A stretch of DNA of 64,000 nt from Escherichia coli. Lineage in GTDB: Bacteria > Pseudomonadota > Gammaproteobacteria > Enterobacterales > Enterobacteriaceae. Location: the NCBI RefSeq assembly GCF_050920415.1, contig NZ_CP169309.1. One strand, written 5' to 3'. A program made the position numbers and the translations under genes. A model generated the notes under the pieces. It did no database searches. It had not been told where the DNA came from and worked only from the letters and a program-made list of their open reading frames with translations. Positions 32,685-43,457 of the stretch are shown piece by piece. Every line of letters starts with the position of its first letter. The first letter of the stretch is position 1.

Positions 32685-33539
32685 ATGACTGACAAAATGC
32701 AAAGTTTAGCTTTAGCCCCTGTTGGCAACCTGGATTCCTACATCCGGGCAGCTAACGCGTGGCCGATGTTGTCGGCTGACGAGGAGCGGGCGCTGGCTGA
32801 AAAGCTGCATTACCATGGCGATCTGGAAGCAGCAAAAACGCTGATCCTGTCTCACCTGCGGTTTGTTGTTCATATTGCTCGTAATTATGCGGGCTATGGC
32901 CTGCCACAGGCGGATTTGATTCAGGAAGGTAACATCGGCCTGATGAAAGCAGTGCGCCGTTTTAACCCGGAAGTGGGTGTGCGCCTGGTCTCCTTCGCCG
33001 TTCACTGGATCAAAGCAGAGATCCACGAATACGTTCTGCGCAACTGGCGTATCGTCAAAGTTGCGACCACCAAAGCGCAGCGCAAACTGTTCTTCAACCT
33101 GCGTAAAACCAAGCAGCGTCTGGGCTGGTTTAATCAGGATGAAGTCGAAATGGTGGCCCGTGAACTGGGCGTAACCAGCAAAGACGTACGTGAGATGGAA
33201 TCGCGTATGGCGGCACAGGACATGACCTTTGACCTGTCTTCCGACGACGATTCCGACAGCCAGCCGATGGCTCCGGTGCTCTATCTGCAGGATAAATCGT
33301 CCAACTTTGCCGACGGCATTGAAGATGATAACTGGGAAGAGCAGGCGGCAAACCGTCTGACCGACGCGATGCAGGGTCTGGATGAGCGTAGCCAGGACAT
33401 TATCCGCGCACGCTGGTTGGACGAAGACAACAAGTCCACGTTGCAGGAACTGGCTGACCGTTACGGTGTTTCCGCTGAGCGTGTGCGCCAGCTGGAAAAG
33501 AACGCGATGAAAAAACTTCGCGCTGCTATTGAAGCGTAA
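32685..33539 (+). CDS. rpoH: RNA polymerase sigma-32 heat-shock factor RpoH
   Basis: 284-aa [54 protein letters not shown]... Confidence 0.95.
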
Positions 33540-33558
33540 TTACCGCTGTTAAGCAGAG

Positions 33559-33592
33559 AACCCTGGATGAGAGTCCGGGGTTTTTGTTTTTT
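33559..33592 (+). terminator. rpoH intrinsic terminator
   Basis: Stem AACCCUGGA/UCCGGGGUU (one G-U pair) followed by TTTTTGTTTTTT. Confidence 0.7.
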
Positions 33593-33810
33593 GGACCTCT
33601 ACAATAATCAATTACCCCCTCCGACAAAACGCCAATCCCCACGCAGATTGTTAATAAACTGTCAAAATAGCTATTCCAATATCATAAAAATCGGGTATGT
33701 TTTAGCAGAGTATGCTGCTAAAGCACGGGTAGTCATGCATAAAACGAAATAAAGTGCTGAACAACAACATCACAACACACGTAATAACCAGATGAATGGG
33801 GATTCTCAGG

Positions 33811-34914
33811 ATGAATATAAAGGGTAAAGCGTTACTGGCAGGATGTATCGCGCTGGCATTCAGCAATATGGCTCTGGCAGAAGATATTAAAGTCGCGGTC
33901 GTGGGCGCAATGTCAGGTCCGGTGGCCCAGTACGGTGACCAGGAGTTTACTGGCGCAGAGCAGGCGGTTGCGGATATCAATGCTAAAGGTGGTATCAAAG
34001 GCAATAAACTGCAAATCGTAAAATATGACGATGCCTGTGACCCGAAACAGGCGGTCGCGGTGGCGAACAAAGTCGTTAACGACGGCATTAAATATGTGAT
34101 TGGTCACCTCTGCTCTTCATCAACGCAGCCAGCGTCTGACATCTACGAAGACGAAGGCATTTTAATGATCACCCCAGCAGCAACCGCACCAGAGCTGACC
34201 GCCCGTGGCTATCAGCTGATCCTGCGCACCACCGGCCTGGACTCCGACCAGGGACCGACGGCGGCGAAATATATTCTTGAGAAAGTGAAACCGCAACGCA
34301 TTGCTATCGTTCACGACAAACAGCAGTACGGCGAAGGTCTGGCGCGTGCAGTGCAGGACGGCCTGAAGAAAGGCAATGCTAACGTGGTGTTCTTTGACGG
34401 CATCACCGCCGGGGAAAAAGATTTCTCAACGCTGGTGGCGCGTCTGAAAAAAGAGAATATCGACTTCGTTTACTACGGCGGTTATCACCCGGAAATGGGG
34501 CAGATCCTGCGTCAGGCACGCGCGGCAGGGCTGAAAACTCAGTTTATGGGGCCAGAAGGCGTGGCTAACGTCTCGCTGTCTAACATTGCGGGCGAGTCAG
34601 CTGAAGGGTTGCTGGTAACCAAGCCGAAGAACTACGATCAGGTTCCGGCGAACAAACCAATTGTTGACGCGATCAAAGCGAAAAAACAGGACCCAAGCGG
34701 CGCGTTCGTCTGGACCACCTACGCCGCGCTGCAATCTTTGCAGGCGGGCCTGAATCAGTCTGACGATCCGGCTGAAATCGCCAAATACCTGAAAGCGAAC
34801 TCCGTGGATACCGTGATGGGGCCGCTGACCTGGGATGAGAAAGGCGATCTGAAAGGCTTTGAGTTCGGCGTATTTGACTGGCACGCCAACGGCACGGCGA
34901 CCGATGCGAAGTAA
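33811..34914 (+). CDS. livJ: Periplasmic Leu/Ile/Val-binding protein LivJ (367 aa; in-frame ATG at 33796 also possible)
   Basis: Signal peptide [23 protein letters not shown] then [20 protein letters not shown]. Confidence 0.9.
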
Positions 34915-34974
34915 TCATTAATCGGCAACTTTGGGTTGCCGCCAAATTGCTAATATCGAGTACGCATGCTTCAT

Positions 34975-35073
<99 letters not shown>

Positions 35074-35114
35074 AATTTCTCGTTGGTCATCACTTTTGAA
35101 ATCAAACTTGACGA

Positions 35115-35498
35115 TTAACGCTTCTCCCAGCCGCCCTGTTGTGCCGTAAACCCCAGCGCCTGCATAAACGCCGTCATCACGCCGCGATCTTCCACGCCTG
35201 CATCCGCCATCCACCAGCCTGAAACGCCAGGATTGTTACGCAAAACCTCTTCCAGCAGATATTGCCCCACACCGCGACGTCGGGTGACTTCCCGCACGCG
35301 CAGGGAATCCAGTGCCCCCTCGGTGCCGTTTAAGGTTACCCGCACGGCCGCGAGCAGGCGCTCGTTAAAACGCGCGGCGTAGATGCGGTGGTTATCGTCA
35401 ACCTGTAAAGAGGAAGGGGAGTACTCCGGCCAGATCTTTTGCAGATCAATCCGGTCCTGGTCGCTAAAGTGTTCTAAACGAATGATGGTCAGCTTCAT
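35115..35498 (-). CDS. panM: GNAT-family PanD maturation factor PanM (YhhK)
   Basis: 127-aa ORF, synteny between livJ and livK; acetyltransferase-like sequence. Confidence 0.8.
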   Translation of the reverse strand: MKLTIIRLEHFSDQDRIDLQKIWPEYSPSSLQVDDNHRIYAARFNERLLAAVRVTLNGTEGALDSLRVREVTRRRGVGQYLLEEVLRNNPGVSGWWMADAGVEDRGVMTAFMQALGFTAQQGGWEKR

Positions 35499-35921
35499 GG
35501 GAAACCCGTGTAAATCACAAAAGTGGAACCAGTGTAGCGAAATAATTTAATCGGAGGCTTTCTCTTTTTTATTTCTTTTGGCAGGTGATTAATTTTTTAA
35601 CAGCAATAATTACAAATTAAAAACATTAGAGAATGAAAAATGTCCAGCATAATCCCCTGAATGGTAGTGAATTATTCCGCCCTTTGTACCGTTATTTTAT
35701 GCTGACAACGGCGCTTTTTTCTGTTTATCTATCAATAAATTCAGAATATTATCTGTTCTTAATCGACTGAAAAATAGGGATTTTAATCGCTATTATCACA
35801 AAACACTGCGCTAAACCCTTAATCAGACAGGCAAAAACAGTGCAGTATAAAAAAAGTACAGTCTGATTTGTTAACACATAAAAACAAAGCAACACAACAT
35901 CACGAATGGGGATTTTTGACT

Positions 35922-37031
35922 ATGAAACGGAATGCGAAAACTATCATCGCAGGGATGATTGCACTGACAATTTCACACACCGCTATGGCCGACGATATTA
36001 AAGTTGCCGTTGTCGGCGCGATGTCCGGTCCGATTGCCCAGTGGGGCGATATGGAATTTAACGGCGCGCGTCAGGCGATTAAAGACATTAATGCCAAAGG
36101 GGGAATTAAAGGCGATAAGCTGGTGGGCGTGGAATATGACGACGCCTGCGACCCGAAACAAGCCGTTGCGGTCGCCAACAAAATCGTTAACGACGGCATT
36201 AAATACGTTATTGGTCATCTGTGTTCCTCCTCTACTCAGCCTGCTTCAGATATCTACGAAGACGAAGGTATTTTGATGATCTCGCCGGGGGCGACCAACC
36301 CGGAGCTGACCCAACGCGGTTATCAACACATCATGCGGACTGCCGGGCTGGACTCTTCCCAGGGGCCAACAGCGGCAAAATACATTCTTGAGACGGTGAA
36401 GCCCCAGCGCATCGCCATCATTCACGACAAACAACAGTATGGCGAAGGGCTGGCGCGTTCGGTGCAGGACGGATTGAAAGCAGCCAATGCCAACGTCGTC
36501 TTCTTCGACGGTATTACCGCTGGTGAGAAAGATTTCTCCGCGCTGATCGCCCGCCTGAAAAAAGAAAACATCGACTTCGTTTACTACGGCGGTTACTACC
36601 CGGAAATGGGGCAGATGCTGCGCCAGGCCCGTTCCGTTGGCCTGAAAACTCAGTTTATGGGGCCGGAAGGGGTGGGTAATGCGTCGCTGTCGAACATTGC
36701 CGGTGATGCCGCCGAAGGTATGTTGGTCACTATGCCAAAACGCTATGACCAGGACCCGGCAAACAAAGGCATCGTTGATGCGCTGAAAGCAGACAAAAAA
36801 GATCCGTCCGGACCTTATGTCTGGATCACCTACGCGGCGGTGCAATCTCTGGCGACTGCCCTTGAGCGTACCGGCAGCGATGAGCCGCTGGCGCTGGTGA
36901 AAGATTTAAAAGCTAACGGTGCAAACACCGTGATTGGGCCGCTGAACTGGGATGAAAAAGGCGATCTTAAGGGATTTGATTTTGGTGTCTTCCAGTGGCA
37001 CGCCGACGGTTCATCGACGGCAGCCAAGTGA
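35922..37031 (+). CDS. livK: Periplasmic leucine-specific binding protein LivK (369 aa)
   Basis: Signal peptide [23 protein letters not shown]; ~80% identical to LivJ by eye. Confidence 0.9.
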
Positions 37032-42482: not shown

Positions 42483-42550
42483 GTCGGATGCGTTTCGCTT
42501 ATCTGACCTGGCATCGCGTGTAGGCCGGATAAGCGAAGCGCATCCGGCAC
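42483..42550. repeat. REP pair (BIME) between ugpB and ugpA
   Basis: GTCGGATGCGTTTCGCTTATCTGACC and GTAGGCCGGATAAGCGAAGCGCATCCGGCAC. Confidence 0.7.
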
Positions 42551-42569
42551 AGTTCAGGAATTAACCGTA

Positions 42570-43457
42570 ATGTCATCATCCCGTCCGGTGTTCCGCTCGC
42601 GCTGGCTGCCTTATTTGCTGGTCGCGCCGCAGCTTATCATCACCGTTATCTTTTTTATCTGGCCTGCGGGCGAAGCGTTGTGGTACTCGCTACAAAGCGT
42701 CGATCCGTTTGGCTTTTCCAGCCAGTTTGTCGGCCTGGATAACTTCGTCACGCTGTTTCATGACAGCTACTATCTCGACTCCTTCTGGACGACGATAAAA
42801 TTCAGCACCTTTGTCACGGTCAGCGGTTTGCTGGTGTCGCTGTTCTTCGCGGCGCTGGTGGAGTATATCGTGCGCGGCAGCCGTTTCTATCAAACCTTAA
42901 TGCTGCTGCCGTATGCCGTGGCTCCCGCCGTTGCCGCCGTATTGTGGATCTTCCTGTTTAACCCTGGTCGCGGGCTGATCACTCATTTTCTCGCTGAGTT
43001 CGGCTACGACTGGAACCATGCGCAAAACAGCGGTCAGGCAATGTTCCTGGTGGTGTTTGCCTCAGTATGGAAGCAAATCAGCTACAACTTTCTGTTCTTC
43101 TATGCCGCGCTGCAATCCATTCCCCGTTCGTTGATTGAAGCCGCAGCCATCGACGGTGCAGGCCCGATTCGCCGCTTCTTTAAGATTGCGCTGCCGCTTA
43201 TCGCCCCGGTGAGCTTCTTCCTGCTGGTGGTGAACCTGGTGTACGCCTTCTTCGATACCTTCCCGGTGATCGACGCCGCCACGTCCGGCGGGCCAGTACA
43301 GGCCACCACGACGCTGATTTATAAGATCTACCGCGAAGGCTTTACCGGACTGGATTTGGCTTCATCTGCCGCGCAGTCGGTGGTGTTGATGTTCCTCGTC
43401 ATCGTGCTGACGGTGGTGCAGTTCCGCTATGTTGAAAGCAAGGTGCGTTACCAATGA
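42570..43457 (+). CDS. ugpA: sn-glycerol-3-phosphate ABC transporter permease UgpA
   Basis: 295-aa hydrophobic ORF, operon position. Confidence 0.95.

Follow-up and report, generated by a model that had tools for sequence, protein, structure and literature searches.

The question raised by the livJ locus of Escherichia coli is whether a C/A-rich element in the 5' leader of this gene, which is followed shortly before the start codon by a sequence block that recurs upstream of livK, is a binding site for the small RNA GcvB. The locus was analyzed within a window of 64,000 nucleotides, a term used throughout for the whole stretch of DNA under study. The original prediction, made from the letters of the window, had placed the element among the CA-rich leader sequences that are targeted by the GU-rich region of GcvB in the mRNAs of amino-acid transporters. 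Combined, the exact complementarity to the R1 region of GcvB, the conservation of the leader and the published regulation of livJ indicate that the element is very probably the GcvB-binding site of the livJ mRNA.

Layout of the livJ control region

The genes surrounding the element are arranged in the order ftsY-ftsE-ftsX-rpoH-livJ-(panZ/panM, on the minus strand)-livK-livH-livM-livG, and the gene order in the MG1655 record agrees with that of the window. Because the terminator hairpin of rpoH, located at 33556-33585, ends at position 33585, the control region of livJ was taken as 33590-33810. The features of this region and of the gene that follows it are listed below.

33696-33707, plus strand: candidate livJ -10 hexamer TATGTT (33696-33701) with a transcript start near 33707, proposed from the position of a fusion primer and from conservation
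33761-33780, plus strand: C/A-rich element ACAACAACATCACAACACAC of livJ, at -50 to -31 from the ATG and approximately +55 to +74 of the proposed leader
33794-33804, plus strand: ribosome-binding region GAATGGGGATT, with the Shine-Dalgarno sequence GGGGA at 33798-33802, 8 nt before the livJ ATG
33811-34914, plus strand: livJ coding sequence, encoding a Leu/Ile/Val/Phe periplasmic binding protein of 367 amino acids (RefSeq annotation, identical E. coli record)

Both the CA-rich element and the GAATGGGGATT block before the start codon were present in the livJ leader as originally described. The 20 nucleotides of ACAACAACATCACAACACAC comprise 11 A, 8 C and 1 T with no G (19 of 20 are C or A) and include six overlapping ACA triplets. 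Upon folding of the leader, the CA run was among the more open parts, with a mean unpaired probability of 0.66. Between GAATGGGGATT and the livJ ATG at 33811 lies the hexamer CTCAGG, and the heptamer ATGGGGA had a majority frequency of 0.98 in an alignment of 63 leaders. Additionally, the longer segment AATGGGGA (33796-33810) was nearly invariant (0.98) before both livJ and livK across the Enterobacterales, which is beyond the apparent need of a Shine-Dalgarno sequence alone.

The start of the livJ transcript can be approached through a published reporter construct. The forward primer of the PBAD-livJ-lacZ fusion of Coornaert 2013 begins at agagtatgctgc, and its reverse primer ends three codons into livJ (PMC3536696). 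The first base of agagtatgctgc corresponds to position 33707 of the window, and the block at 33694-33716 is near-invariant across genera in the leader alignment; from these two observations we infer a livJ leader of 104 nt starting near 33707. A scan for consensus sigma-70 promoters made no plus-strand call upstream of livJ; the candidate, TTCCAA-16-TATGTT, is too weak for the thresholds of the scan. As a separate observation, the near-invariant segment GGTATGTTTTAGCAGAGTATGCTGC (33694-33738) spans the probable -10 hexamer and transcript start, and the first approximately 30 nt of the proposed leader contain a predicted 5' stem-loop at 33710-33738.

Several further observations concern translation starts at this locus. 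An in-frame ATG at 33796, which would open a reading frame of 372 amino acids, was considered as the livJ start and rejected: it lies 14 or 15 nt from the annotated ATG depending on the genus, with no Shine-Dalgarno sequence before it, and since this alternating spacing breaks the frame between genera, it is not a conserved coding extension. The window allele carries T at 33793, where K-12 and most sampled E. coli have A; this base creates an additional out-of-frame ATG at 33792 and an 11-codon upstream reading frame (33792-33827) that overlaps the livJ start and has no obvious Shine-Dalgarno sequence. Most enterobacterial livJ genes begin with ATGAA(T/A)ATGAAG, so that the second ATG is codon 3, where the window and K-12 have ATA; the sequence CAGGATGAA in front of the codon-3 ATG could serve as an alternative Shine-Dalgarno sequence and start in other genera.

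When 33300-36200 was searched against Rfam (E-values up to 1), neither the livJ nor the livK leader matched a cis-regulatory RNA family. The only matches were sub-threshold ones to naRNA4, a REP-derived nucleoid-associated RNA, at 34968-35116 between livJ and panZ (40.4 bits, compared with a gathering threshold of 59.5), and these are most likely REP elements.

Pairing with GcvB R1 and repression of livJ

The gcvB gene lies outside the window, and the GcvB sequence was taken from MG1655, with R1 defined as nt 63-90 (GGUUGUGAUGUUGUGUUGUUGUGUUUGC). Since gcvB was found in 5425 of the 5426 complete E. coli genomes and was at least 99% identical in 5389 of them, the K-12 gene is a fair proxy. Two features of the livJ leader are defined by their relation to R1.

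33764-33776, plus strand: ACAACATCACAAC, a 13-nt perfect Watson-Crick complement to GcvB nt 64-76 (GUUGUGAUGUUGU)
33754-33781, plus strand: predicted GcvB-binding stretch, forming 23 bp with GcvB nt 66-92, with a hybrid energy of -26.5 kcal/mol and approximately -15.9 kcal/mol after the opening of both RNAs

The 13-nt complement in livJ and a 14-nt complement in the livK leader are the two longest exact complements to R1 on either strand of the 64 kb, all others being 9 nt long. In 200 Markov-simulated sequences, approximately 0.09 complements of at least 13 nt and approximately 0.02 of at least 14 nt were expected per window. The length of the exact complement is a suitable statistic here because a target composed only of C and A cannot form G-U wobble pairs. 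The lone base of the element that is neither C nor A, T33770, stands opposite the lone A of R1, and the same is true in livK. Stretches of 20 nt with at least 19 C or A occurred at four loci on the plus strand of the window and at none on the minus strand; two of these loci are the livJ and livK leaders, and the remaining stretches, at 1812-1816 and 16857-16863, were set aside as antisense to minus-strand open reading frames.

Duplexes were predicted with ViennaRNA duplexfold, with GcvB restricted to R1 nt 60-92 and opening energies added by a constraint-based calculation; this restriction was used because folding the leader against full-length GcvB gave meaningless duplexes of more than 100 nt. 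When the 5' regions of 55 proxy genes were ranked by R1 duplex energy, livK was first and livJ tied for second, and against dinucleotide shuffles livJ had a z-score of -2.4 (9 of 500 shuffles reached the livJ value) and livK a z-score of -4.0 (0 of 500). The two regions tied with livJ at -28.4 kcal/mol belong to unrelated genes, precede open reading frames starting at 42570 and 58756 (5' regions at approximately 42490-42610 and 58676-58796), are without a long perfect complement, and are probably wobble-driven false positives. When raw hybrid energy was computed for sliding 40-nt segments along the whole window, livJ was not singled out, many unrelated sites being equal or better. Raw energy is a weak to moderate discriminator because the G/U-rich R1 pairs promiscuously through wobble, and the length of the exact Watson-Crick complement discriminated far better.

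The register of the minimum-energy duplex (GcvB nt 66-92) differs from that of the 13-nt perfect complement (GcvB nt 64-76), so any exact pairing register assigned to livJ is a model-based estimate. The predicted size of 23 bp agrees with the reference livJ duplex of approximately 22 bp (0.955 = 21/22) in benchmark papers, where GcvB-livJ serves as a standard test case for programs that predict RNA-RNA interactions. The in silico interaction analysis suggested with the original prediction thus returned both an exact 13-nt complement and a predicted 23-bp duplex with R1.

These predictions can be compared with an existing experimental record. Table 1 of PMC9299463 lists livJ and livK as R1-seed targets, "Verified" in Salmonella (citing Sharma 2007) and "Conserved" in E. 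coli, and gives for livJ 80, 49, 191 and 547 RIL-seq chimeras in four data sets, a MAPS enrichment of 22.4 and a CLASH count of 0. In E. coli MG1655, a PBAD-livJ-lacZ fusion carrying -104 to +9 was repressed by GcvB and less so by GcvBmutR1, "as expected" (Fig. 3D of PMC3536696). Absence of GcvB-dependent regulation of livJ leader fusions had been named as the outcome that would speak against the proposal; the published K-12 leader fusion depends on GcvB and on R1 (PMC3536696), and the idea is not refuted. The Salmonella R1 site (Sharma et al. 2007, Genes Dev 21:2804) belongs to the same gene and has the same position upstream of that gene's ribosome-binding site, and two S. enterica livJ leaders read AACAATAACATCACAACACAC, one base off the window element. 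The window allele (AACAAC..., with T at 33793) is rare, whereas the published E. coli verification used the K-12 allele (AAAAAC...); the window allele would be expected to behave like that of K-12.

The assignment of the livJ element to the GU-rich region of GcvB is therefore supported by an exact R1 complement, a 23-bp predicted duplex, conservation and its published status as an R1 target. The reading can be made sharper than the original reference to elements of this kind, since the literature already names both livJ and livK as targets of R1. That livJ is repressed in a GcvB- and R1-dependent manner (Salmonella, E. coli K-12) and that the RNAs make contact in vivo is known from the literature, and the present analysis contributes the sequence, complementarity and conservation of the site.

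The site lies 18 nt upstream of the Shine-Dalgarno sequence, from which it follows that repression is not simple occlusion of that sequence; in agreement, GcvB was reported to bind livJ upstream of its ribosome-binding site, and simple competition with the ribosome failed to explain repression (PMC2639303). In the proposed mechanism, GcvB made in rich medium would pair through R1, with the assistance of Hfq, with the unstructured, G-free CA run at -50 to -31. The AAC repeats at 33760-33768, at the 5' end of the run, would fit the A-R-N motif that is described as an Hfq site in PMC4104026. Most likely, pairing would mask a sequence that loads ribosomes or acts as a C/A (ACA) translation enhancer, thereby reducing 30S initiation, and RNase E decay might occur secondarily after pairing.

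Precedents for such an enhancer are found in other GcvB targets. A CA-rich gltI element 45 nt upstream of that gene's start codon and ACA motifs of yifK and dppA are translation enhancers silenced by GcvB, and ACA motifs enhance translation regardless of their exact position (PMC3879156). These GcvB sites are, like that of livJ, C/A-rich, G-free and located in the mRNA leaders of amino-acid or peptide transporters. Enhancer activity was demonstrated for gltI, yifK and dppA, whereas for livJ it is deduced from this likeness, which makes ACAACAACATCACAACACAC a probable ACA-type translation enhancer.

A rival reading of the same properties treats the CA run as nothing more than a translation enhancer acting in cis or a standby site for the ribosome, selected through its ACA motifs for efficient LivJ synthesis, with the complementarity to GcvB as a by-product that has no regulatory effect. 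The six overlapping ACA triplets and the lack of G would fit this explanation, as would the positional independence of ACA enhancers (PMC3879156) and the C/A-only composition of every E. coli allele even where the perfect 13-mer is broken. It is nevertheless very unlikely, given that GcvB- and R1-dependent repression of the E. coli livJ leader fusion was measured (PMC3536696), that GcvB-livJ contacts were recovered by RIL-seq and MAPS (PMC9299463), and that CA-richness alone does not predict the match, in livJ (T33770) as in livK, to the only A of R1. An enhancer function and GcvB control can coexist, the former being no substitute for the latter.

livK and the leaders of other enterobacteria

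Control of livJ by GcvB through R1 has a counterpart at livK, whose leader carries the corresponding features in a different arrangement.

35890-35903, plus strand: livK C/A-rich element CAACACAACATCAC, positioned -32 to -19 relative to the start codon; it adjoins the Shine-Dalgarno motif and is perfectly complementary to GcvB R1 over 14 nt
35904-35914, plus strand: livK copy of GAATGGGGATT, with the Shine-Dalgarno sequence GGGGA at 35908-35912, 7 nt before the livK ATG at 35922

A repeat finder identified exactly two words common to the livJ and livK leaders, the 11-mer GAATGGGGATT and the 10-mer ACAACATCAC, the latter occurring as exact copies at 33764-33773 in livJ and 35894-35903 in livK. 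The two words adjoin in livK and are separated by 20 nt in livJ; the sequences bordering the CA run are also different (in livK, GCAACACAACATCAC). The near-identical pair that had been proposed to exist upstream of livK is therefore borne out for the 10-mer and the 11-mer, which are identical, but not for their spacing (0 vs. 20 nt) or their flanks. The livK site is like that of livJ in that ACAACATCAC pairs with the same segment of R1 and is accompanied by the same GAATGGGGATT block; it is unlike livJ in that the CA block adjoins the Shine-Dalgarno sequence, the livJ block lying 20 nt further upstream. This adjacency makes direct occlusion of the ribosome-binding site plausible in livK, which would be controlled likewise by GcvB through its own CA block.

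The conservation of the livJ site was assessed in one scan of a collection of species-representative genomes, which gave 80 livJ-type loci and 61 distinct Enterobacteriaceae livJ leaders for comparison. A perfect R1 complement of at least 11 nt was present in 50 of the 61 distinct leaders, compared with 0.1% of shuffles, the R1 of other genera being assumed equal to that of K-12; R1 is reported to have a "high degree of sequence conservation" (PMC3879156). The identical 13-mer ACAACATCACAAC occurred at about -47 in 36 of the 61 leaders. The CA core is a conservation island in the livJ leader, with a mean majority frequency of 0.90, whereas the value was 0.72 in the 5' half of the leader and 0.66 over the 7 nt directly upstream of the core. 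Leaders of Buttiauxella, Cedecea, Siccibacter and others are without the 13-mer and have instead AACAACACAACA, ACAACAACACAACA or AACACAACAACAC; because these sequences complement other parts of the internally repetitive R1, the register shifts without loss of the potential to pair. The livK leaders of 46 genomes conserve ACATCACGAATGGGGATT. Across genera, the contiguous R1 complement had a median length of 7 nt (ACATCAC) in livK and was usually 13 nt in livJ, the 14-mer of E. coli livK being extreme.

A side observation concerns Escherichia sp. MOD1-EC7003, in which LivJ is 99% identical over the best segment but is preceded by another type of leader (AATAACAATATCGCAACAAATG), similar to those of Kosakonia and Phytobacter, whose complement to R1 spans only 6 nt; this leader may represent recombination or the loss of the GcvB site.

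The shared motifs might also be functionless relics of the duplication that produced the two paralogues, an origin to which the coding identity between livJ and livK (74% for DNA and 77% for protein) and the loose alignability of the leaders (56%) would lend themselves. The arrangement of the motifs argues against this: in a collinear alignment, the strong CA blocks and with them the ACAACATCAC copies fall at non-homologous positions, distal in livJ and proximal, adjoining the Shine-Dalgarno sequence, in livK, and each leader has a decayed CA-like stretch opposite the strong CA block of the other. The CA core evolves more slowly than the neighboring leader (0.90 vs. 0.72), and the flanks have diverged while R1 complementarity was kept in 50 of 61 leaders, sometimes in a new register, which is a signature of selection on pairing rather than inertia. 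The GAATGGGGATT block may be ancestral, yet it is functional anyway as a ribosome-binding site. Inheritance as a relic is therefore highly improbable, and the shared ACAACATCAC is better explained by common pairing with GcvB nt 67-76, which include A70, the only A of R1, than by a duplicated leader.

A last alternative holds that the CA run mainly loads Rho (a rut site) or is recognized by another regulator, for instance Hfq alone or a different sRNA whose seed is like that of GcvB, and that it mediates premature termination or repression independently of GcvB. RNA that is C-rich, G-poor and unstructured is the general signature of a rut site, and livJ transcription was reported in the early 1990s to terminate prematurely in response to leucine. 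Despite the C-rich, G-free composition of the run and the fit of its AAC repeats to the A-R-N Hfq motifs given in PMC4104026, this alternative is hardly credible, since 20 nt is short for a rut site, no Rfam family was found in the leader (33300-36200) and nothing there pointed to another partner, and dependence on GcvB is documented (PMC9299463, PMC3536696); Rho or another regulator could act in addition to GcvB control instead of in its place.

Variation of the site and its meaning

Pairing of the element with GcvB R1, the reading preferred here, can also be considered in relation to the variation found within E. coli. Region 33540-34000 of the window had matches in 5425 of 5426 complete E. 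coli genomes, with 100% identity in one (NZ_CP169399.1, strain MFDS1022581), 97.4% identity to the next-best matches listed, and 5398 records in the 95-99% band. The rpoH-livJ intergenic region is unusually divergent in the lineage of the window.

The window allele (AACAAC...), counted as the exact 71-nt leader, was present in 16 of the 5426 genomes, and the K-12 allele, with AAAAAC for AACAAC, in 732. A third allele, AATCACAACACCACAACACAC, was carried by 1226 genomes (approximately 23%); its T33770C substitution breaks the 13-mer, and eight bases upstream the allele gains ATCACAAC. In strain A41, the CA element is longer by one 8-nt unit. All of the E. coli alleles were G-free and remained C/A-only even with the 13-mer broken, with predicted hybrid energies of -23.4 to -33.2 kcal/mol. 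The polymorphism of the CA element with its predicted R1 pairing kept is a minor new point and, as far as seen, the only part that is apparently outside the literature.

A more speculative possibility, which is considered rather unlikely, is that the livJ GcvB site is a fast-evolving, repeat-like module (AACAAC, AAAAAC, ATCACAAC-ACCACAAC and the three-unit expansion, with register shifts across genera) that would tune the shut-off of branched-chain uptake by lineage in rich medium. If true, this would represent natural variation in an sRNA-target interaction in which regulation is preserved through the internal redundancy of R1.

Overall, the livJ feature is an already known GcvB target site, for which the original prediction was correct and ordinary: the site was recognizable as an sRNA target from the letters of the DNA alone, and no new biology is added by its recognition. 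As an example of an sRNA that shuts down amino-acid import in rich medium, the control of livJ and livK by GcvB has textbook status. Together with the change of register between genera, the variation of the site within E. coli suggests that a long, repetitive seed may buffer the turnover of its target sites.
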